IMG/VR virus record: IMGVR_UViG_3300037512_000782
Location: 124,732 to 188,731 of that record
Direction: 5' to 3' (one strand)
DNA length: 64,000 nucleotides
Source of the DNA: a virus
Taxonomy: Duplodnaviria > Heunggongvirae > Uroviricota > Caudoviricetes
Part shown: positions 37,030 to 49,054 of the stretch, piece by piece
How positions within the stretch are numbered: position 1 is the stretch's first letter
Layout: every line of letters begins with the position of its first letter
Position numbers and translations under genes: made by a program
Notes under the pieces: generated by a model
The model's input: only the letters and a program-made list of their open reading frames with translations
The model's database searches: none
What the model was told of the DNA's origin: nothing

Positions 37030-38076
37030 ATGACTAATTTTGAATATCTTGTCAAGGACGTCGGAATGTCCAAGGCCCAGCTAGAAGGCATCATGAAGCT
37101 TGCCGACGTGTGCGGATTCAAGCCGATGTTCGAAGCTGACGAAGTGATGGATTTTGACGATTTCGATATTGGCGAATTTGAAGACCACATTGACGCCGCA
37201 CACGCACAAGCGGAAGAAGACAAACGCCAGCGCTACGATTCTGTAAAAGGCAAGAGCATTGCCCAGATTCTCAGGGAAAATCCAGTCGAAGATGATACCG
37301 GAAGCGCTGGTGATGATGATTTAGGCACTACCGAAGAAGCGAAGAAGAAGCTGCGTAGGATCAACACGAAGAAGCACGAAGATACTGGCGATGACATGAT
37401 TGCTCCAGTTGACTTTGCCGTCAATAACGACAACAACTTCGGCATTGCATACGGTAACGAAGATTATGATGACATGGACTCTCTGCAGACTCGTGAATGG
37501 ACGATGGATGATGTGAATACGTTCGACACGATGAAGAACCAAGAAGAGGTTGACCAAGCCAACCGCGAAATGACCGATCCTACGTCAGTTATGAACGAAG
37601 AACAGAAGCTGGTAGTTCGCATTATCAAGAAGCTCGGTGGCGTTGCGAAGGAAGTTCCGGGTAATCTGAAGGAGCTGATGGTGGACGTTGCTGAAGCCAC
37701 TAGGAATGCTGAAGAAACCACTGATGCCGATGATTCAAACATTACGTATGGTAATGAAGTTGGCGACCAGAATGAGGTTGGTGATACAGACGAAGTAATC
37801 GACCAAGTCGAAGAACTTTGCAAGCGTGTACGCGCATCCGTCGCTTCTATGCCGGAATCTCAGGCGACATCGACGATTAACTCGATCAAGACGATGATTG
37901 CCGAGCTCACAAAGAAATATGTAAGCAATCCGTTCAATCGTACCCTCGAAAACTTCTTGTCGGATATTTCTTTGACTACTGCATCGCCGTCGAGCTATCG
38001 AGGAGGCGTCGCCGCTAGCAAGGATCGCATCAAGCAGATGGCAAATGCGGCATTGAAGCGTGTCAAGGGACTATAA
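37030..38076 (+). CDS. Acidic hypothetical late protein (possible head-internal/scaffold)
   Basis: Late motif at 36993; very Asp/Glu-rich. Confidence 0.6.
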   Translation: MTNFEYLVKDVGMSKAQLEGIMKLADVCGFKPMFEADEVMDFDDFDIGEFEDHIDAAHAQAEEDKRQRYDSVKGKSIAQILRENPVEDDTGSAGDDDLGTTEEAKKKLRRINTKKHEDTGDDMIAPVDFAVNNDNNFGIAYGNEDYDDMDSLQTREWTMDDVNTFDTMKNQEEVDQANREMTDPTSVMNEEQKLVVRIIKKLGGVAKEVPGNLKELMVDVAEATRNAEETTDADDSNITYGNEVGDQNEVGDTDEVIDQVEELCKRVRASVASMPESQATSTINSIKTMIAELTKKYVSNPFNRTLENFLSDISLTTASPSSYRGGVAASKDRIKQMANAALKRVKGL

Positions 38077-38139
38077 ACGAAGAAAAATAGGGTTTTTTGT
38101 AAATTTTTGTTAATATTTGATAAAAATCGCAAAAAACCC

Positions 38140-38168
38140 TTGACGATCGAAAAAATAATTGCTAAACT
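38140..38168 (+). promoter_or_regulatory. Sigma70-like promoter of the tRNA array leader
   Basis: TTGACG-17 nt-TAAACT with an AT-rich UP element. Confidence 0.7.
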
Positions 38169-38191
38169 TGAATGCAAAGAGGTTAAAAACC

Positions 38192-38311
38192 ATGCAAATG
38201 ATGCTACATAACATTAAACTCGTTGAACGCAATAGTCAGTTGGCACCCAAGGCCGACCGCCTCTTTGCAGCATATACGGGTTGCGGTTATGGGCAAAAGT
38301 TGCACCGATGA
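38192..38311 (+). CDS. Putative leader peptide (39 aa) of the tRNA array attenuator
   Basis: AGAGG SD; MQMMLHNIKLVERNSQLAPKADRLFAAYTGCGYGQKLHR*; lies between promoter and terminator. Confidence 0.55.
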   Translation: MQMMLHNIKLVERNSQLAPKADRLFAAYTGCGYGQKLHR

Positions 38312-38340
38312 TTTCCTTTGAAGGTTGATGTTTGATGGGA

Positions 38341-38372
38341 ACCCGGTTGCAACAAAAGCAACTGGGTTTTTT
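38341..38372 (+). terminator. Attenuator-type intrinsic terminator upstream of the first tRNA
   Basis: ACCCGGTTGC-AACAAAA-GCAACTGGGT plus TTTTT. Confidence 0.8.
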
Positions 38373-38390
38373 CATTCACCAATAACATTT

Positions 38391-38464
38391 GGGTCTGTGG
38401 CAGAATGGGATTGCACCTCCCTTGCAAGGAGTGTTCTTACGGGTTCGAATCCCGTCAGTATCCA
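38391..38464 (+). tRNA. tRNA-Ala(UGC)
   Basis: Loop CT-TGC-AA; G3:U70; 1-nt bulge in acceptor stem. Confidence 0.85.
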
Positions 38465-38520
38465 GTAAACATAAGTCCGAGAGACTTATGAGCAGTTTGA
38501 CAGTTCGGATGATTTTGTAT

Positions 38521-38593
38521 GGGGCATTAGCGCAATGGTAGAGCGCTTCCATGGCATGGAAGAGGTTTATCGGTTCGAGTCCGATATGCTCCA
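38521..38593 (+). tRNA. tRNA-Ala(GGC)
   Basis: CTTCC-AT-GGC-AT-GGAAG; G3:U70. Confidence 0.9.
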
Positions 38594-38601
38594 GTAATTA
38601 A

Positions 38602-38673
38602 GGGTCATTAGTTCAATGGTAGAATTCTGGCTCCGCACGTCAGCGATATCGGTTCGAGTCCGATATTGATCCA
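38602..38673 (+). tRNA. tRNA-Ala(CGC)
   Basis: CTGGC-TC-CGC-AC-GTCAG; G3:U70; C33; acceptor bulge. Confidence 0.8.
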
Positions 38674-38706
38674 TTATAAAATGGATAGTCTGCACTATCG
38701 AACCCA

Positions 38707-38715
38707 TGATAAACT
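38707..38715 (+). promoter_or_regulatory. Putative late promoter TGATAAACT
   Basis: Upstream of the HNH gene. Confidence 0.55.
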
Positions 38716-38744
38716 TTGAAATAGCGTAACAATATGTGGTATGT

Positions 38745-39533
38745 ATGTTTGTTAGTGAAAAACGAATCGCGGCGAATCGACGTAATATAGAATTAGGTCG
38801 AGCAAAATCGCACGAAACTTGGCATCGAATTAAGGAACGTAACCAATCATTAGTCGAATGTACGGCGGTATGTGAACATTGTCATAAAGAATTTCACAAA
38901 ATGATTAAGCAAATCGACCTCGATAAAAATCGTTTGCCAAGATTTTGTTCACGAAGCTGTGCGAATTCGAGGGTTAGAACAACGGAGTTGAAACAACATT
39001 TACACGAGACAATGAAGAATCAAAAATATGTGGATGGCGAAAAGTCTCCCATAATACGTTATTGCAAGGGTTGTGGCTGTATTATGCCGCTGGCTGTAAA
39101 AACGCATCGACGATATTGTTCTGACGAATGCCGAATATCGTTTAAAATTCGTGAGAAGAATACTAACGCGAAATGTACTAAGCGGAAATATAAAGAAGCT
39201 TGCCGATTCATGTTTGATGTGTATGATTATCCAAATGAATTTGATTTATTACTCATTCAACAGTATGGTTGGTATAGTGCTACTAATTATGACGACAATC
39301 CGAATGGGGTATCACGCGATCACATGTATAGCGTAAGTGCTGGTTACAAGAACAATATACCAGCAACAATTATTGCGCATCCAGCAAATTGTCGGTTGCT
39401 GTTGCAATCTGATAACTTCAAAAAGTTGGATGATTGCTCAATTACGCTAGATGAATTGTACGATCGAATACGAACATGGGAACTGAAATATGGTAAATAC
39501 CAGCCTAGTACATGGAATGTGAATAAACACTAA
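38745..39533 (+). CDS. Putative HNH-type homing endonuclease with Zn-finger repeats
   Basis: CEHC, FCSRSC, CKGC, YCSDEC; SRDHMYSV...HPANCRLL...DNFKK; AT-rich relative to flanks; inserted in the tRNA array. Confidence 0.7.
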   Translation: MFVSEKRIAANRRNIELGRAKSHETWHRIKERNQSLVECTAVCEHCHKEFHKMIKQIDLDKNRLPRFCSRSCANSRVRTTELKQHLHETMKNQKYVDGEKSPIIRYCKGCGCIMPLAVKTHRRYCSDECRISFKIREKNTNAKCTKRKYKEACRFMFDVYDYPNEFDLLLIQQYGWYSATNYDDNPNGVSRDHMYSVSAGYKNNIPATIIAHPANCRLLLQSDNFKKLDDCSITLDELYDRIRTWELKYGKYQPSTWNVNKH

Positions 39534-39543
39534 ATAATTATAT

Positions 39544-39620
39544 GGTCACTTAGCTCAGCTGGATTTTAGAGCGCCGTGCTACGAACGCGGAGGTCGGGAG
39601 TTCGATCCTCTCAGTGACTA
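39544..39620 (+). tRNA. tRNA-Arg(ACG)
   Basis: CCGTG-CT-ACG-AA-CGCGG. Confidence 0.9.
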
Positions 39621-39629
39621 CTAAAATAT

Positions 39630-39702
39630 GGTCCCGTCGACCAGCGGTTTAAGTCATCGCACTTTCTATGCGATTACCCCGGTTCGAATCCGGGCGGGAC
39701 TA
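39630..39702 (+). tRNA. tRNA-Glu(UUC)
   Basis: TCGCA-CT-TTC-TA-TGCGA; atypical U37. Confidence 0.85.
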
Positions 39703-39711
39703 CTAATTTAT

Positions 39712-39785
39712 CCTCATCTGGCGCAATTGGTTAGCGCTTCGCTCTGATACGGCGGAGGTTCTTGGTTCGAGTCCAAGGGTGAGGA
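39712..39785 (+). tRNA. tRNA-Ile(GAU)
   Basis: TCGCT-CT-GAT-AC-GGCGG. Confidence 0.85.
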
Positions 39786-39792
39786 CTAACTT

Positions 39793-39878
39793 TGATTGAT
39801 CGTGGGTCTCAATGTTCCCGACGGCGATGGAGCAGTCCATGTGGAAGGTTAATCTCCTTCGTGATTCTTGATCAGTCA
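39793..39878 (+). ncRNA. Unassigned four-way-junction RNA
   Basis: Terminal stem TGATTGATC/GATCAGTCA enclosing three hairpins; lies between two tRNAs. Confidence 0.4.
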
Positions 39879-39882
39879 TTAT

Positions 39883-39955
39883 GCCGCTGTAGCTCAGTAG
39901 GTAGAGCGGAAGCCTGAAGAGCTTCGCGTCGGAGGTTCGATTCCTCCCGGCGGCA
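39883..39955 (+). tRNA. tRNA-Phe(GAA)
   Basis: GAAGC-CT-GAA-GA-GCTTC. Confidence 0.95.
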
Positions 39956-39968
39956 CTAATAAATTTAT

Positions 39969-40171
39969 GGGTACTCTGCTGCAGAAATGCCGAGTAGGAG
40001 AAAGTCGACAGAAAGCTCTGGGATAGTGATCTAACCAGTCACGACATTCCTTGAACAAGTATAGAGACCTAACGAAAGCTTAAATGGAGATGCAGATGTG
40101 AGCTGGTAACTCACATGGTCTGGATGTCTAAATCCGACGACCTAGCTCTGGTTCGAATCCAGGAGGGCCCA
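39969..40171 (+). ncRNA. 203-nt RNA with tRNA-like acceptor stem and T-arm
   Basis: GGGTACT/AGGGCCC-A-CTA acceptor, TCTGG-TTCGAAT-CCAGG T-arm, large structured insert. Confidence 0.6.
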
Positions 40172-40175
40172 CTAT

Positions 40176-40248
40176 ACCTCACTGGCTCAATTGGTAGAGC
40201 AAGGCACTCTTAATGCTTGGGTTGAAGGTTCAAGTCCTTCGTGGGGTA
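40176..40248 (+). tRNA. tRNA-Lys(CUU)
   Basis: AGGCA-CT-CTT-AA-TGCTT. Confidence 0.9.
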
Positions 40249-40342
40249 CTAAACGCACTAATCCGTCTGCGATAGAAATGACGGAGAGACCTTCGGCAGT
40301 TAACACGGGAAAGTCCCTTCGGGGTCAAGCTGCCATCTTTAT

Positions 40343-40415
40343 TGCGGTATAGCTCAGTTGGTAGAGCAGCGGAATCATAATCCGTGTGTCGAAGGTTCAA
40401 GTCCTTCTACCGCAA
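40343..40415 (+). tRNA. tRNA-Met(CAU), probably elongator
   Basis: GCGGA-AT-CAT-AA-TCCGT. Confidence 0.85.
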
Positions 40416-40422
40416 CTATTAT

Positions 40423-40496
40423 GGGGCCATCGTCTAGTTGGCTAGGACACCAGCTTGTCACGCTGGAAATCACGGGTTCGAACCCCGTTGGTCCCG
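40423..40496 (+). tRNA. tRNA-Asp(GUC)
   Basis: CCAGC-TT-GTC-AC-GCTGG; G73. Confidence 0.95.
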
Positions 40497-40499
40497 TAT

Positions 40500-40575
40500 A
40501 CTCGATTCGCCTAGCTGGTCGATGGCATCTGCCTTACAAGCAGACACAACCTTGGTTCGAATCCAAGATCGAGTA
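40500..40575 (+). tRNA. tRNA-Val(UAC)
   Basis: TCTGC-CT-TAC-AA-GCAGA. Confidence 0.9.
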
Positions 40576-40579
40576 CTAT

Positions 40580-40651
40580 AGGGATTTAGGACAGTGGCTA
40601 GTCTAGCGCTCTCCAAAAGCGTCTACGGGAGTTCGAATCTCTCAGTCCCTG
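40580..40651 (+). tRNA. tRNA-Trp(CCA)
   Basis: GCGCT-CT-CCA-AA-AGCGT; G73. Confidence 0.9.
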
Positions 40652-40667
40652 CTAACAAATTATTTAT

Positions 40668-40751
40668 GGGTGATCTCCGATGATGGTGAATCGGGGCTGG
40701 CTGTAACCCAGCTGCCTTACGGCTCAGGGCGTTCGAATCGCTCATCACCCA
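40668..40751 (+). tRNA. tRNA-Tyr(GUA)
   Basis: GCTGG-CT-GTA-AC-CCAGC; long variable arm. Confidence 0.9.
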
Positions 40752-40759
40752 CTACTTAT

Positions 40760-40831
40760 TCTATCCTAGCTCAATGGTAGAGCGTTCGGCTGTTAACCGA
40801 ATGGTTCCTGGTTCGAGTCCAGGGGATAGAG
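40760..40831 (+). tRNA. tRNA-Asn(GUU)
   Basis: TTCGG-CT-GTT-AA-CCGAA; G73. Confidence 0.95.
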
Positions 40832-40841
40832 CTAATCATTT

Positions 40842-40914
40842 CAGCGTGTAGCTCAGCTGGTAGAGCGCACCGTTCGGGGCGGTGAGGTCGGTGGATCGTT
40901 CCCACTTACGCTGA
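40842..40914 (+). tRNA. tRNA-Pro(CGG)
   Basis: CACCG-TT-CGG-GG-CGGTG; atypical T-loop. Confidence 0.85.
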
Positions 40915-40919
40915 CTATT

Positions 40920-40992
40920 GCCTATGTAGCTCAGTTGGTAGAGCAACGGTTTAGTAATCCGTAGGTCGGCAGTTCGACCCTGTCCGTAGGCG
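40920..40992 (+). tRNA. tRNA-Thr(AGU)
   Basis: ACGGT-TT-AGT-AA-TCCGT; G1-C72, C2-G71. Confidence 0.8.
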
Positions 40993-40999
40993 CTACTAT

Positions 41000-41072
41000 T
41001 CCGACATAGCTCAGTTGGTAGAGCAGATCATTCGTAATGATCAGGTCGCTCGTTCGAGTCGAGCTGTCGGAG
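41000..41072 (+). tRNA. tRNA-Thr(CGU)
   Basis: GATCA-TT-CGT-AA-TGATC. Confidence 0.9.
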
Positions 41073-41076
41073 CTAT

Positions 41077-41159
41077 GGAAGTGTATCCTAACTGGTAAGG
41101 AACTACCTTGGAAAGGTAGCGTGGGAAACTGCTTGAAGGTTCGAGCCCTTCCACTTCCG
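41077..41159 (+). tRNA. tRNA-Ser(GGA)
   Basis: CTACC-TT-GGA-AA-GGTAG; long variable arm; G73. Confidence 0.9.
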
Positions 41160-41163
41160 CTAT

Positions 41164-41253
41164 GGAAGCGTAGACCTAACTGGTAAGGCCGCTGATTCGA
41201 AATCAGTCGTGTGGAGGATACTTCGCGTGTGGGTTCGAGTCCTACCGCTTCCG
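41164..41253 (+). tRNA. tRNA-Ser(CGA)
   Basis: GCTGA-TT-CGA-AA-TCAGT; long variable arm. Confidence 0.9.
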
Positions 41254-41270
41254 CTAATAAAGTTTGTATG

Positions 41271-41354
41271 GAGAGTTGGCAGAGTCTGGCTTATTGCATC
41301 ACGGTGCTAACGTGACGGTCTTAGGATCCACTGGTTCGAATCCAGTACTCTCTT
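41271..41354 (+). tRNA. tRNA-Ser(GCU)
   Basis: TCACG-GT-GCT-AA-CGTGA; G32. Confidence 0.85.
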
Positions 41355-41362
41355 CTAATCAT

Positions 41363-41436
41363 GGTGCCCGTAGCTCAATTGGTAGAGCCCTGGTATGTGG
41401 AACCAGCTGTTGCAAGTTCAAGCCTTGTCGGACGCC
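41363..41436 (+). tRNA. tRNA-His(GUG)
   Basis: CTGGT-AT-GTG-GA-ACCAG; G-1/C73. Confidence 0.9.
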
Positions 41437-41443
41437 CTATTAT

Positions 41444-41516
41444 TGCCGATTAGCCAAGTTGGTAAGGCAGATGCCTCTGAAGCATCGTATCGTTCGTTCG
41501 AGTCGAGCATCGGCAA
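41444..41516 (+). tRNA. tRNA-Gln(CUG)
   Basis: GATGC-CT-CTG-AA-GCATC. Confidence 0.9.
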
Positions 41517-41530
41517 CTAAAATTTTATAT

Positions 41531-41604
41531 GCGCCCATGGTGTAATTGGCTAACACGACACCTTGCCATGGTGTAGACTGCCGAATCGTGCTCGGCTGGG
41601 CGCT
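41531..41604 (+). tRNA. tRNA-Gly(GCC)
   Basis: ACACC-TT-GCC-AT-GGTGT; U73; atypical T-loop. Confidence 0.85.
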
Positions 41605-41608
41605 CTAT

Positions 41609-41691
41609 CTCGATGTGGGGGAATTGGTAGACCCGCCAGCTTGAGGGGCTGGTTCGTAACAGAGTGCATGGTTCAAGTCCAGCCATCGAGA
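41609..41691 (+). tRNA. tRNA-Leu(GAG)
   Basis: CCAGC-TT-GAG-GG-GCTGG; long variable arm. Confidence 0.9.
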
Positions 41692-41704
41692 CTAATCATC
41701 AATC

Positions 41705-41790
41705 CGGCGATTGCTGGAACTGGAAAGACAATTCGGACTTAAAATCCGAAGCACGTAACGTGCGTATGGGTTCGAGTCCCATATCGCCGA
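41705..41790 (+). tRNA. tRNA-Leu(UAA)
   Basis: TCGGA-CT-TAA-AA-TCCGA; long variable arm. Confidence 0.9.
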
Positions 41791-41863
41791 TAGGAGATAA
41801 CTAACATGAAGAAACTTAAACGATTATAAAGGTCGCAACTGCCTATCAGTTGCAATTCCCTAT

Positions 41864-41936
41864 GCGGGATTGGCGCAGTTGGTAGCGCAATGGACTTTTA
41901 ATCTATGGGTCGTCAGTTCGAACCTGACATCCCGCA
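41864..41936 (+). tRNA. tRNA-Lys(UUU)
   Basis: ATGGA-CT-TTT-AA-TCTAT. Confidence 0.9.
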
Positions 41937-41940
41937 CTAT

Positions 41941-42011
41941 GCACCTATATTGTAGTGGTAACAAGGTGGTCTTCCAAACCGCAATCGCCAGTTCGAATCT
42001 GACTAGGTGCT
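41941..42011 (+). tRNA. tRNA-Gly(UCC)
   Basis: GTGGT-CT-TCC-AA-ACCGC; U73. Confidence 0.9.
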
Positions 42012-42020
42012 CTAACTTAT

Positions 42021-42104
42021 CGGCATGTGGAGTAATTGGTAGCCTCGCCAGAATCAGAATCTGGTGGTCGAAAGATCGTGAGGGTTCGATTCCCTCTTTG
42101 CCGA
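42021..42104 (+). tRNA. tRNA-Leu(CAG)
   Basis: CCAGA-AT-CAG-AA-TCTGG; long variable arm. Confidence 0.85.
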
Positions 42105-42108
42105 CTAT

Positions 42109-42182
42109 CGCCCGGTGACGGAACTGGCATACGTTTCAGATTCAAAACCTGACTTTTGCGGGTTCGACTCCCGCCTGGGCGA
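42109..42182 (+). tRNA. tRNA-Leu(CAA) with short variable loop
   Basis: TCAGA-TT-CAA-AA-CCTGA; Leu-type D-arm; only 5 nt in the variable region. Confidence 0.75.
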
Positions 42183-42208
42183 CTATCTTTTCTAACAAAG
42201 GAACTAAC

Positions 42209-42547
42209 ATGATAACCGTTTCACAGATCAACGAACTTCGCCAGCAGACACAAGTGAGCATGCTTCTCTGCAAGCAAGCTCTTGAGGCTACTGACGGTGA
42301 CATGAACCGAGCCAAGGAATGGCTCCGCAGCAAGGGTAGCGAGGTCGCCGGAGACGGCGGATCGTTCGGATACTCTCTGTTCGAGGACGCTACCGAAAAA
42401 CTACAAGGCGTTACCGAAGGTGGCAAGGGTTTCCAATGGACTGATGGCGTAGTATCTATCGACATCCGTGGTTTCGACGGATCGTCTCCGAGAACTCTGT
42501 GGGGAAGCGACAGACGCATGCTGGTCTGCAGACCAGTCAAGGCGTAA
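42209..42547 (+). CDS. EF-Ts N-terminal (UBA-like) domain protein
   Basis: ITVSQINELRQQTQVSMLLCKQALEATDGDMNRAKEWLRSKG matches the EF-Ts N-terminal consensus; the rest is unrelated; AAGGA SD. Confidence 0.8.
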   Translation: MITVSQINELRQQTQVSMLLCKQALEATDGDMNRAKEWLRSKGSEVAGDGGSFGYSLFEDATEKLQGVTEGGKGFQWTDGVVSIDIRGFDGSSPRTLWGSDRRMLVCRPVKA

Positions 42548-42552
42548 CTTCT

Positions 42553-42625
42553 GCCCACGAAGCTCAACTGGATGAGCTGCGGATTTCTAATCCGCTGGCT
42601 GCGAGTTCGACTCTCGTCGTGGGTA
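42553..42625 (+). tRNA. tRNA-Arg(UCU)
   Basis: GCGGA-TT-TCT-AA-TCCGC. Confidence 0.9.
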
Positions 42626-42629
42626 CTAC

Positions 42630-42657
42630 TTGCAATCAAAACACTATTTGCTATATT
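42630..42657 (+). promoter_or_regulatory. Sigma70-like promoter inside the array
   Basis: TTGCAA-16 nt-TATATT. Confidence 0.6.
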
Positions 42658-42668
42658 TCGTACTGTAT

Positions 42669-42739
42669 TGAGCTATGGTGTAACGGTAGCACACGGGATT
42701 TTGATTCCCATAGTCTAGGTTCAAATCCTGGTAGCTCAA
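42669..42739 (+). tRNA. tRNA-Gln(UUG)
   Basis: CGGGA-TT-TTG-AT-TCCCA. Confidence 0.9.
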
Positions 42740-42743
42740 CTAT

Positions 42744-42823
42744 CCGGTTGTGGTGGAATTGGTAGACACGTCAGACTTAGGATCTGGTGCTTATGCGTGT
42801 GGGTTCGAGTCCCTCTAGCCGGA
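42744..42823 (+). tRNA. tRNA-Leu(UAG)
   Basis: TCAGA-CT-TAG-GA-TCTGG. Confidence 0.9.
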
Positions 42824-42839
42824 CTATTAAGAGGTTTCT

Positions 42840-43277
42840 ATGAGACGTTTGTTCATTATCCGCAAGGACTTGAAGTTATCTGCTGGCAAGCTTGCCGCGA
42901 TGGTTGCGCACTGCGCCGAAGGCTACTGGACGCGCCTTATCGCTAGGAATGCCGACTTCGACGGAGACGAGCATTACACAGTCCGATTCCGTTTGGATAA
43001 AGCGGACATGGAAGAATACATCAAGGGCATCTTCAAGAAGACTATCTGCGAGGCGAAGAACCTCAACCATCTTATGAAGGTCAAGGAAGTTGCCGACGGC
43101 CTTGGTCTTGTACAAGGCGAAGATTACGACTTCATCGACGACGCATGCTTGACGGAGCTGACTCCGGAAGCTGTCGACGAGAAGGGCAATGGTTATTGCC
43201 GAGTCGGCGTGTGGTTCAAGCCGCTATCTGACGAGATCAGCCACACGCTGTCCAAGAAGTATCAACTTTATCATTAA
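42840..43277 (+). CDS. pth2: Peptidyl-tRNA hydrolase, Pth2 family
   Basis: FIIRKDLKLSAGKLAAMVAHCA, KKTICEAKN, FIDDACLTE, GVWFKPL..SKKYQLY. Confidence 0.85.
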   Translation: MRRLFIIRKDLKLSAGKLAAMVAHCAEGYWTRLIARNADFDGDEHYTVRFRLDKADMEEYIKGIFKKTICEAKNLNHLMKVKEVADGLGLVQGEDYDFIDDACLTELTPEAVDEKGNGYCRVGVWFKPLSDEISHTLSKKYQLYH

Positions 43278-43282
43278 ACTAT

Positions 43283-43356
43283 GCTGACGTGCCGAAGTGG
43301 GAACGGGTGAGTCCGCAAAACTTTACATTGAGTGTGTTCGATTCACACCGTCAGCT
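43283..43356 (+). tRNA. tRNA-Cys(GCA)
   Basis: GAGT-CC-GCA-AA-ACTT; U73; C33. Confidence 0.8.
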
Positions 43357-43366
43357 CTAACTACTT

Positions 43367-44080
43367 ATGAAATTTGGATTGATCGGAAAGAACATTGGAT
43401 ACAGCAAGTCCAAGGAACTGTTTGACCAATGGAACCTTGACTACCGAGTTTACGACGTTGACAGTGTCGAACAAGGTCTTGAGCTGGTTATTGACGACAA
43501 GCTCGACGGATTCAATGTGACAAAGCCGTTCAAGAAGGACATCATCAAGTATCTTGACGGATTGATGCCCAATGCAGAACGTATTCAGTCAGTGAACTGC
43601 GTGAAGGTGTTTGCCGATACGTTGATCGGCGAGAACTTCGATTGCGATGCATTTCGTAACTCCTTGTGTCATTACATCAGCAATCACGACGCTTGGGAAT
43701 TCGACTTCCCTCACCGAATGGCGATTCTTGGAAATGGCGGCGTGACGCCGTCGATATTGGCTGCGTTACACGAAGTTGTGGACGGCGTTTCATCCAGTCA
43801 CGAGATTACGGTATTCGCTAGGACTCCGAAGGACGGTGAAACACCTATTGCCGAGTTCGATGCGAAACGGTTCGACTTGATAGTCAATACGGTTCCGTTC
43901 GAGGCTGGCATCGACATCGACTTCAACAACAAGGGCAAGTTCATCTATTATGACTTGAACTATGCCGATCGCCGATTGGTCGAGAAGGCTGAACTTAACA
44001 AGCATTGTTCTTGGTCGCTCGACGGCATGGATATGCTGGAACGGCAAGCTGAAATGGCCAAGAACTGGTGGCTGGCATAA
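43367..44080 (+). CDS. aroE: Shikimate dehydrogenase
   Basis: FGLIGKNIGYSKS, GFNVTKPFK (catalytic Lys), SVNC, GENFD, ILGNGG, IVNTVP, YDLNY, DGMDMLERQA. Confidence 0.85.
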   Translation: MKFGLIGKNIGYSKSKELFDQWNLDYRVYDVDSVEQGLELVIDDKLDGFNVTKPFKKDIIKYLDGLMPNAERIQSVNCVKVFADTLIGENFDCDAFRNSLCHYISNHDAWEFDFPHRMAILGNGGVTPSILAALHEVVDGVSSSHEITVFARTPKDGETPIAEFDAKRFDLIVNTVPFEAGIDIDFNNKGKFIYYDLNYADRRLVEKAELNKHCSWSLDGMDMLERQAEMAKNWWLA

Positions 44081-44109: not shown

Positions 44110-44138
44110 TTGCCAATGCTGGAGTTTATTGCTATATT
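44110..44138 (+). promoter_or_regulatory. Sigma70-like promoter
   Basis: TTGCCA-17 nt-TATATT; upstream of the second tRNA-Asn and the ncRNA/Y RNA/Ro60 block. Confidence 0.7.
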
Positions 44139-46140: not shown

Positions 46141-46286
46141 TAATATCTAGCGGTGACAGATTAGAGTTTCATCGACTGTTAATCGAGAGGTTGTTGGTTC
46201 GAGTCCAATCGTGCTAGCTAGTCTGGCATGTAGCTCAATCGGTAGAGCGCTAAAAAAAGCTTTAGTCGCCTATTCCCTAGATATTA
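46141..46286 (+). ncRNA. Y RNA (YrlA-like) Y3
   Basis: TAATATCTAG/CTAGATATTA closing stem; Asn-like anticodon hairpin, T-arm, acceptor, D-arm in permuted order. Confidence 0.8.
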
Positions 46287-46310
46287 TTCAAGTATATTTA
46301 TGTGAAGTTT

Positions 46311-46460
46311 GAACCAGCAGTGATAGGATAGGGATACTTCGCAATAGGTGCCGTGGGTCGTCGGTTCAAATCCGGCTTCGCCGCCTAGCTTTTTATGCGG
46401 CGGATAGCTCAGTCTGGTAGAGCAACGATCAAATCTCTCTGTTCGCCCATTCTCTGGTTC
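46311..46460 (+). ncRNA. Y RNA (YrlA-like) Y4
   Basis: GAACCAG/CTGGTTC closing stem; GTCGG-TTCAAAT-CCGGC T-arm, then acceptor stem, then GCTC..GAGC D-arm. Confidence 0.8.
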
Positions 46461-46659: not shown

Positions 46660-48081
46660 ATGTCAAAGTTAAATCCGTCCACGAAGGGCAATTCAATGGA
46701 CACTACTGTCCGTTTGGCTGGCGGGACCGGTGCTTATGCTGCGAAGTCGTCCAACATCGACACGCTTCGCCGTCTCGTACTCGCCAACTTACTCTGGGAA
46801 GACATTGCTTACGCCGATGGCGAATCAGTGTCCGAAGAAATCTCCAGCCTCATACCGAAGTGTGATGCTGTGGAAGTCGCAAAGCTTGCGGTAGAATGCC
46901 GTGAGAAGCAGAAGTTGCGTCATACGCCGTTGTTCATCGCAGCGGAAATGACGAAGTACGCAACGCATAAGGTTTACGTGAAGGATATCCTTCCGAGGAT
47001 CATCACTCGCGCCGACATGCTCTGTGACTTCCTTGCGATTTATTGGAAGGACAAGAAGCACCCGCTGGCAAATTGCGTGAAGCGTGGTCTTGCTGATGCG
47101 TTCCACAACTTCGACGAATACCAGTTCGCCAAGTATGACCGTGACGCAGTGATCAAGCTCCGCGACGTGCTCCGCATGGTGCATCCGACTCCGCGTAACG
47201 AAGACGAAGCCGCATTGTTCAAGCGCATCAAGGAACGTACCTTGAAGACGCCGGATACTTGGGAAGTCGCGATTTCCGCTGTGTCCGCAGACAAGAAGGC
47301 TGACGAATGGACTCGACTCATCCAAGAAAAGCGTCTCGGTGGTCTTGCGTTCTTGCGCAACATGGCTAACTTTGTGAACAACAAGGTGAAGCGCAGTGTT
47401 GTTGAGGAAGGTTTGAAGAACCTCAAGGGAAGCATGCTCTTGCCGCTTGACTATATCAAGGCTGCGAAGATGGCCTCTGGCTATACTCGCGAAATCGAAG
47501 ACGCGATGATCTCGTCCTACAAGCACTTGCCGAAGCTGCCGGGTAAGACCTTGTTCATCTTGGACAGGTCTGGTTCCATGGGCCGTGCGATCTCCAGCAA
47601 GAGCAATTTCACTCGTCTTGACGTTGCTTGCGCGATGGCTATGTTGGCCTCGAACGTGTGTGAAGACTTCAGCTTGGTCGTAACCGCTGGTGACGACTGG
47701 AAGAAGGTCGCTGCATCGGTCGCTGTCGACTGTCCGCCGCGTGGTTTCTCCATGACCCAAGTGGTCGACCGTTGCAATGTCGGCGGTGGTGGTATCTTCA
47801 CTCGCCAGGTGCTTGAATGGTCTCGCAACCACTTCAAGACCGACGAGTTCGACCGTATCATCGTGTTCTCGGACTCTCAGGACTGCGATCTGCCGTCTAG
47901 GCAGACTCCGAAGCCGTTCGGTAAGTACAACTACATCTGCGACGTAAGCGCAGAGAAGCACGGCATCAACTACCGTGGAGTTTGGACTGCCGAAATCTCC
48001 GGTTGGTCGGAACACTTCTTGACCTATATCGCAGCTTACGAAGGACTTGAAAACAAGTTCGAGAGCGAGTCGATGAACTAA
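46660..48081 (+). CDS. rsr: Ro60-related TROVE-domain RNA-binding protein (Rsr)
   Basis: LRRLVLANLLWED, LRHTP, FDEYQFAKY, KLRDVLRMVHP, TWEVAIS, AFLRNM and vWA MIDAS LDRSGSM...FSDSQ. Confidence 0.9.
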   Translation: MSKLNPSTKGNSMDTTVRLAGGTGAYAAKSSNIDTLRRLVLANLLWEDIAYADGESVSEEISSLIPKCDAVEVAKLAVECREKQKLRHTPLFIAAEMTKYATHKVYVKDILPRIITRADMLCDFLAIYWKDKKHPLANCVKRGLADAFHNFDEYQFAKYDRDAVIKLRDVLRMVHPTPRNEDEAALFKRIKERTLKTPDTWEVAISAVSADKKADEWTRLIQEKRLGGLAFLRNMANFVNNKVKRSVVEEGLKNLKGSMLLPLDYIKAAKMASGYTREIEDAMISSYKHLPKLPGKTLFILDRSGSMGRAISSKSNFTRLDVACAMAMLASNVCEDFSLVVTAGDDWKKVAASVAVDCPPRGFSMTQVVDRCNVGGGGIFTRQVLEWSRNHFKTDEFDRIIVFSDSQDCDLPSRQTPKPFGKYNYICDVSAEKHGINYRGVWTAEISGWSEHFLTYIAAYEGLENKFESESMN

Positions 48082-48895: not shown

Positions 48896-49054
48896 TGTTT
48901 GGGTATCCAGAAAACTACGCGCTTCTACCTCAGCGTAGCCAGTATGGTCGTCCGGGAAGAAAGCTCCTCAAGATACCGGATGTAAAGACAAAATCTCTTC
49001 TGGGATGTCTATAAATGCCGTTTTTGGTTTGGGCGGCGAACCAGTGAGGGTATT

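Follow-up and report, generated by a model that had tools for sequence, protein, structure and literature searches.

How a phage transcribes a transfer RNA (tRNA) array whose first gene stands directly behind an intrinsic transcription terminator is the question raised by the locus described here. The stretch analysed (64,000 nt, hereafter the window) covers positions 124,732 to 188,731 of the IMG/VR virus record IMGVR_UViG_3300037512_000782, a 348,092 bp record of a huge rumen phage with an estimated completeness of 91% (CheckV). All 42 tRNA genes of the record lie on the + strand between window positions 38391 and 55649; the array covers all 20 amino acids, and a single leader stands ahead of it. 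This cassette (38140-38390) consists of a promoter, a Shine-Dalgarno (SD) sequence, a 39-codon leader open reading frame (ORF) and a terminator, followed by the first tRNA; the initial annotation of the window had described these elements in this order, and rechecking the coordinates found each of them where it had been placed. Promoter, SD and terminator are of ordinary bacterial type. From sequence comparison and predicted RNA folding, we consider it reasonably probable that the cassette is a ribosome-dependent (leader-peptide) transcription attenuator that gates the tRNA array; tRNA production would then probably be tied to how well ribosomes translate.

Searching with a profile of the phage's own promoters identified no promoter-like site between the terminator and 44110; the next + strand sites past 38140 are at 44110, 53083, 55734 and 55850. 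The first 33 tRNAs (38391-43357) must therefore be reached via read-through of the terminator at 38340-38372. Beyond 38372, leaving aside a weak site at 49021, the next terminator-like hairpin comes after the last tRNA. The terminator itself forms a 14-bp hairpin in the minimum free energy (MFE) structure; a simple terminator scan missed it because a G.T extension of the stem consumed the T tract.

Relatives of the cassette were obtained via two neighboring proteins in a large metagenome protein index, with contig look-ups, and through one DNA pattern scan of Joint Genome Institute (JGI) metagenomes (-10, SD and ATGCA), whose 18 matches comprised 11 true homologues and 7 unrelated chance matches. 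Querying the phage GenBank collection with the region and its upstream protein (megablast, blastn and tblastn) returned generic tRNA matches and no relatives. Neither scans of IMG/VR (upstream protein, HNH-like protein, exact terminator, promoter-SD-ATG pattern) nor protein patterns in JGI metagenomes returned any relatives. The contigs recovered come mostly from cattle-rumen assemblies and share the same layout, and a neighboring protein of 323 amino acids ranges from 93% down to 43% identity across these genomes. Including the window, 19 distinct leader variants were assembled: 15 of type A (36-39 codons, ending ..KLHR) and 4 of type B (32 codons, ending ..PLQL or ..PLQH). The case for the cassette is strong because of the comparison with these 18 further variants; the window sequence by itself is only marginal.

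A leader profile (nhmmer) finds exactly one copy per genome, and a same-strand tRNA array follows the cassette in 18/18 loci with downstream sequence. In 13 of these 18, the distance from the T tract to the first called tRNA is 16-22 nt; in the other five, the first ARAGORN call comes at approximately 145-265 nt. Five relatives contain a tRNA-like sequence with a CTGGCAG loop directly past the terminator that ARAGORN does not call (e.g., L020 13488-13560; L022 7079-7153). Used as a protein query, the TTG-extended 50-amino-acid leader frame retrieved only 3 clusters, and the leader ORF is therefore almost never annotated.

Across the 19 variants, the -10 and its TGC are identical, and the SD and ATG are invariant. 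The SD-ATG spacer varies both in length (6-9 nt) and in sequence, and the -35 appears as TTGACG, TTGACA, TTGCAA, TTGCAC or TTGCAT. Among type A sequences, identity reaches 100% for the -10 and SD, 92% for codons 12-23, and again 100% for the last four codons plus stop; it is 86% for the 28-nt post-stop spacer and, within the terminator, 97% for the 5' arm, 81% for the loop and 79% for the 3' arm. The leader ORF is open in every variant, at 32-39 codons. All five alignment gaps inside it measure 3 or 9 nt, while gaps in the 5' untranslated region, the post-stop spacer and the terminator have mixed lengths, many of them not multiples of 3. These data support selection on the reading frame and suggest that the ORF is translated. 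By the initial annotation, an ORF that was not conserved would have refuted its proposal; the frame is intact in 19/19 variants.

Constraint on the encoded peptide is weak. The ratio of nonsynonymous to synonymous differences (pN/pS) is 0.2-0.75, residue identity between type A and type B peptides is 37%, and codon usage resembles out-of-frame sequence rather than genes, with several rare codons. A kept frame combined with weak protein-level constraint and codons that are not gene-like is more in keeping with a regulatory leader than with a small protein that has a function of its own. For the same genome pairs, the leader has a proportion of synonymous differences of 0.13-0.28 and the neighboring gene one of 0.62-0.81; synonymous sites are thus 3-5 times more conserved in the leader, which argues that RNA structure is also under selection.

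The initial annotation had also drawn attention to a leader peptide that contains 19 of the 20 amino acids, with no run of any one. This composition is real—Trp alone is missing from the window peptide—yet the diversity is only modestly above chance: leader peptides of 32-39 residues use 17-20 different amino acids, against an expectation of 14.5-15.6, with p values of 0.003-0.19 per variant among variants that are related to one another. All 20 amino acids occur in four variants, within 38-39 codons. These data lend modest support to the idea that the leader samples the whole decoding repertoire, which would match an array covering all 20 amino acids. Matching of leader codons to phage anticodons (24/39 with a Watson-Crick cognate, versus 39/61 sense codons overall, by hand count) was dropped as uninformative because the array decodes everything.

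At the RNA level, the region 38140-38390 folds more stably than shuffled sequences (z = -3.0). The terminator is paired in 97.6% of alignment cells among the 19 variants, and four of its pairs change on both sides; the changes include a paired C:G insertion, moving G.U positions and a full Watson-Crick replacement. The hairpin inside the ORF keeps a 7-nt loop in 19/19 variants with 7 different loop sequences, and its stem changes from G-C to A-U or G.U and from U.G to U-A. The helix joining the start codon (region 1) to the ORF end has one variable pair, which covaries: both substitutions are synonymous, Gln CAA to CAG on one side and Leu UUG to CUG on the other. Considered jointly, pairing in these three helices reaches 95%, 6 pairs differ on both sides, and their covariation score was reached by 0/500 shuffles.

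The putative antiterminator joins the ORF end (region 2) to the terminator 5' arm (region 3), a pairing that had been predicted from the window alone. The two segments, GTTGCACCG at 38299-38307 and CGGTTGCAAC at 38344-38353, are present exactly and are complementary as described. For a nascent transcript cut before the terminator 3' arm (region 4), RNAalifold predicts this same pairing, which is kept in 19/19 variants with compensatory changes. The 2:3 helix is paired in 97% of cells, versus 7-48% with the partner columns slid, and two pairs change on both sides (U-A, U.G, C-G and C-G, A-U, G-C). Covariation in related phages was a check named in the initial annotation, and pairs changed on both sides occur in both the terminator and the 2:3 helix. 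In the divergent type B variant L020, the last 10 nt of the ORF pair perfectly with the 5' arm in a 10-bp helix (-18.6 kcal/mol, shuffle p 0.002) whose antiterminator strand ends at the base before the stop codon. The antiterminator strand comprises the last 3-4 codons in both subfamilies, though their C-terminal peptides differ. Between L020 and L034, a U to C change in region 3 is matched by A to G in region 2 and by A to G in region 4, the pattern expected of one strand with two alternative mates.

A second upstream strand may compete for the same arm. The proposed pairing of CGGGTT (38277-38282) with AACCCG (38340-38345), both exact in the sequence, proved to be part of a longer strand at 38264-38283 that mimics the terminator 3' arm; this strand gives the best duplex in the window lineage (-16 to -18.8 kcal/mol, shuffle p approximately 0.04). 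The strand is strong there but not in all lineages, and it does not give the best duplex in every one of them.

Table 1. Elements of the leader cassette and the start of the tRNA array (window coordinates)
Feature	Position	Strand	Description
Sigma-70-type promoter	38140-38168	+	-35 TTGACG 38140-38145, 17-nt A-rich spacer, extended -10 TGc-TAAACT (-10 38163-38168)
Shine-Dalgarno AAGAGG	38177-38182	+	invariant in all variants; 9 nt before ATG
Leader ORF	38192-38311	+	39 codons + TGA; ATG 38192, TGA 38309-38311
Region 1, UGCAA at start codon	38193-38197	+	can pair with UUGCA 38300-38304; paired 19/19
Hairpin inside ORF	38239-38257	+	GUUGGC, 7-nt loop, GCCGAC; candidate RNA polymerase pause hairpin
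Alternative strand (UUGCAGC..CGGGUU), terminator 3' arm mimic	38264-38283	+	can pair with entire 5' arm
Region 2, antiterminator 5' strand	38299-38307	+	last ORF codons, GTTGCACCG; 100% identical among type A lineages
Post-stop spacer	38313-38341	+	non-coding; inner helix UUUCC 38313-17 with GGGAA 38337-41 (RNAalifold, truncated transcript)
Intrinsic terminator, regions 3 and 4	38340-38372	+	11-bp stem (38340-38350 with 38358-38368, one G.U), 7-nt loop, T6
tRNA-Ala(tgc), first tRNA	starts 38391	+	18 nt beyond terminator end
tRNA array, first block	38391-43357	+	33 tRNAs, three tRNA-Ala first

Taken as an attenuator, the cassette would gate read-through into the array from the 38140 promoter and from any upstream transcription. 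RNA polymerase would transcribe a short, efficiently initiated ORF whose region 2 (38299-38307) is complementary to region 3 (38340-38353). Should region 3 emerge while the ORF end is free of ribosomes—the ribosome being late, stalled or absent—regions 2 and 3 would pair, and together with the inner helix of the spacer would form an antiterminator, allowing polymerase to continue into tRNA-Ala and the rest of the array. A closely following ribosome on the last codons or the stop codon would instead hide region 2, so that the 3:4 terminator forms and transcription stops at 38372. The in-ORF hairpin may pause polymerase and so give the ribosome time to draw level, and untranslated RNA may be kept in the terminating form by the helix between the start codon and region 2. 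Overall, we infer that fast leader translation would yield few phage tRNAs and slow or sparse translation many, a feedback from translation capacity to tRNA supply.

Folding of the nascent L020 RNA with a 30-nt ribosome mask gives a clean switch of this kind. The 5' arm is predicted to be paired at 12/12 positions as long as the A site has moved no further than codon 25, and at 5/12 positions once it has reached codon 27 and up to the stop codon. Equilibrium folding of the full-length RNA (MFE) always contains the terminator; the switch decision would therefore be kinetic, as in known attenuators.

According to run records, part of the stretch occurs in 13 RNA libraries made from bovine and sheep gut metagenomes. 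Contigs from four studies were aligned to it and contain the leader; all runs were contigs rather than reads, a format that carries no termination ratio, strand or true ends. One 389-nt contig, of an L012-like variant, begins approximately 3 nt past the -10 and passes the terminator into the tRNAs. The contigs give a weak hint of transcription start and read-through at the leader.

Several observations weigh against an attenuator of this design. Two RNA-library contigs reach upstream of the promoter, and DNA carry-over or read-in from the upstream gene is possible. The 38140 promoter is weak, ranking 37 of 41 on the phage's own promoter profile. The leader has no regulatory codon run, and is therefore not an attenuator of the trp/his type; in this it resembles the run-less bmrB and vmlR type. 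Considered in the window alone, the best duplex between leader and 5' arm reaches a shuffle p of 0.04 when the whole leader is considered and 0.13 when only its last 60 nt are, placing 6th among the 51 terminators of the genome. Most paired columns in the alignment are invariant, and approximately 2-3 evolutionary events account for the compensatory changes (the difference between type A and type B, and L034). A palindromic UGCA core recurs in several strands and easily gives complementarity, and the two subfamilies differ in the register of the lower 2:3 helix, which was selected with the sequences already in view. The folding models also complicate the picture. In the window model, the 38264-38283 strand, left behind a terminating ribosome at the stop codon, can capture the 5' arm, so that a one-ribosome switch is not clean, and the mask-folding predictions for L016 are noisy. 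Termination in the window lineage may require a second ribosome or another fold.

These features invite alternative explanations. The cassette could be a small early gene of the usual kind that has a promoter of its own and a normal, somewhat leaky terminator and encodes a functional peptide; the tRNAs would be transcribed by constitutive read-through, and translation of the ORF would have no effect on termination. The conserved ORF, SD and terminator, the lack of a regulatory codon run, the RNA-library contigs that cross the terminator and the single-sequence alternative pairings that barely exceed chance are all compatible with such a gene. However, the peptide falls to 37% identity between subfamilies while the RNA helices are kept, its codon usage resembles out-of-frame sequence, and its synonymous sites are 3-5 times more conserved than those of the neighboring gene. 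Each subfamily also retains complementarity between the ORF end and the terminator 5' arm through compensatory changes, and the cassette always abuts the tRNA array; we regard this explanation as unlikely. It is less probable still that the transcript of approximately 200 nt is mainly a structured small RNA, possibly with a dual function, acting in trans or in the processing or stability of tRNA precursors, with the ORF incidental or secondary. Its very high nucleotide conservation, which extends to synonymous and non-coding positions, its conserved internal hairpin and strong terminator hairpin, and its presence in rumen metatranscriptome contigs of several studies would all suit such an RNA, and RNAs derived from attenuators are known to function in trans, rnTrpL being one (PMC6614838). 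Against this, the frame is kept through five alignment gaps among the 19 variants, SD and ATG are invariant while the spacer is variable, no Rfam family matches, and no target came to light, although no search aimed at one was made; a small RNA would moreover be compatible with attenuation in cis.

A further alternative retains regulated termination but replaces the ribosome with a factor: a phage or host antitermination protein, or T-box-like binding of tRNA, would overcome the terminator and make expression of the array timed or signal-dependent. Phage antitermination is a classic route past terminators, exemplified by lambda N and Q, and this precedent lends the idea some weight. Huge phages encode many unassigned proteins, the large ORFs neighboring the leader have no Pfam match, and the leader contains a conserved hairpin with a fixed 7-nt loop. 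However, the 7 different loop sequences argue against recognition by a specific protein or a specifier site, and Rfam 15 returned no match in 38140-38390, to T-box or any other family, at E values up to 1; T-box and known leader families were dropped from consideration for this reason. A factor would also leave the conserved SD, ATG and frame, and the overlap of the antiterminator with the ORF end, unexplained. We consider this explanation improbable, to about the same degree as the small RNA, and continue to favor a ribosome-dependent attenuator.

Leader-peptide attenuation is classically known from amino-acid operons (trpL, hisL, leuL, thrL, pheL), and its theory has been treated (PMC1183508). 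As in these systems, the phage cassette has an SD and short ORF close to the promoter and an intrinsic terminator whose 5' arm also serves an antiterminator; a possible pause hairpin and a possible 1:2 helix are there too, and, as proposed here, ribosome position would decide which helix forms. It differs in that the phage leader has 17-20 different amino acids and no regulatory codon run, in that its antiterminator 5' strand lies inside the last codons rather than past the stop codon, and in that it would regulate phage tRNAs rather than cell enzymes; there is no sequence homology. A classical leader-peptide attenuator also controls pheST (the pheM leader). T-box riboswitches, in which a leader RNA with terminator and antiterminator alternatives links tRNA status to translation-apparatus genes, are alike in their general scheme; in contrast, the phage leader has no T-box, specifier loop or Rfam match, and sensing is proposed to occur via the translating ribosome rather than by direct binding of tRNA.

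A closer parallel in logic than the classical attenuators is bmrB-bmrCD. Its leader ORF, which has no codon run, is part of alternative stem-loops that include an intrinsic terminator; antibiotics that target the ribosome induce the system only if the leader is translated, and rare codons affect the decision (PMC4191407). The phage leader likewise has several rare codons and no run. The vmlR (PMC9226507), hflXr (PMC6310831) and msrD (PMC10314930) systems are likewise described as ribosome-mediated attenuators that answer general translation inhibition. All four systems control bacterial resistance proteins and respond to antibiotics, unlike the phage cassette, whose output would be a complete tRNA set. 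The vmlR, hflXr and msrD leaders presumably work like that of bmrB-bmrCD.

Phage tRNA arrays have been discussed as an aid to codon usage, as a replacement for degraded host translation machinery and as a counter to tRNA-cleaving defences, and in the work on counter-defence a strong promoter is the only expression control mentioned (PMC11555353). Full-text literature searches returned no published description of a leader-peptide attenuator before phage tRNA genes, in agreement with the statement in the initial annotation that none had been described; that statement needs qualifying, as attenuators answering general inhibition without codon runs, such as bmrB-bmrCD, make this kind of mechanism already known in bacteria. 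Expression control of phage tRNA arrays is almost unexplored.

What a ribosome-dependent attenuator might respond to can be approached from the composition of the leader. Sensing of translation health by the leader is plausible. A more specific possibility, which we put forward tentatively and hold to be rather doubtful, is that the leader senses decoding capacity in general: if almost any tRNA ran short, was cleaved or was inactivated, the ribosome on the leader would slow, the antiterminator strand would be freed and the complete tRNA set switched on. The leader would then be both a homeostat of tRNA supply and an inducible response to anticodon nucleases or to degradation of host tRNAs. If this were so, the phage would measure decoding capacity and adjust its tRNA supply, and leader-peptide attenuation would no longer be confined to protein-coding operons but take in tRNA genes and viruses.

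The promoter of the cassette belongs to a wider set. Approximately 40 sites of a sharp promoter class, TTGACA-N14-TGnTATATTT, occur in the genome, concentrated at genome positions 180-346 kb and often directly past terminators; the 38140 promoter fits this class, but with two mismatches in the -10. Directly upstream of its -35, at 38090-38139, an inverted repeat (GGGTTTTTTG / CAAAAAACCC) encloses a 30-nt AT-rich stretch; close relatives have the identical repeat, whereas distant ones retain it only in part. Further upstream, 37030-38076 encodes an acidic protein of 348 amino acids with no Pfam or PHROG match. In the closest relatives it shows 69-94% amino acid identity, compared with 94-97% nucleotide identity in the flanking DNA, and thus diverges much faster than its surroundings.

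Within the array, the opening three tRNA-Ala isoacceptors (38391-38673) have low scores with the tRNA model. A small hairpin followed by a perfect TTGACA at 38497 (38470-38502) lies between the first two tRNAs; it is kept in distant relatives and could be a processing site or a weak internal promoter. A second promoter in or after the terminator was considered as a route into the array and rejected, as the profile finds none and this TTGACA has no usable -10. The ORF at 38736-39533 encodes an HNH-like homing endonuclease (phrog_23051, phrog_15471) between tRNA-Ala(cgc) and tRNA-Arg(acg); these two tRNAs are only 3-6 nt apart in several relatives, indicating that the ORF is an insertion. Other endonuclease ORFs (DUF559, NUMOD3) are found at different points of the array in relatives.

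The tRNA region also includes, at 42840-44080, genes for the peptidyl-tRNA hydrolase Pth2 and for a protein whose N-terminal domain is that of shikimate dehydrogenase, and the tRNA region of relatives additionally encodes a protein with an EF-Ts N-terminal domain. Two matches to YrlA-like Y RNA, below the Rfam gathering score, lie at 46172-46428, just upstream of a TROVE/Ro60-like ORF with a VWA domain (46660-48081); this arrangement resembles a bacterial Rsr-Y RNA module placed within the phage tRNA region.
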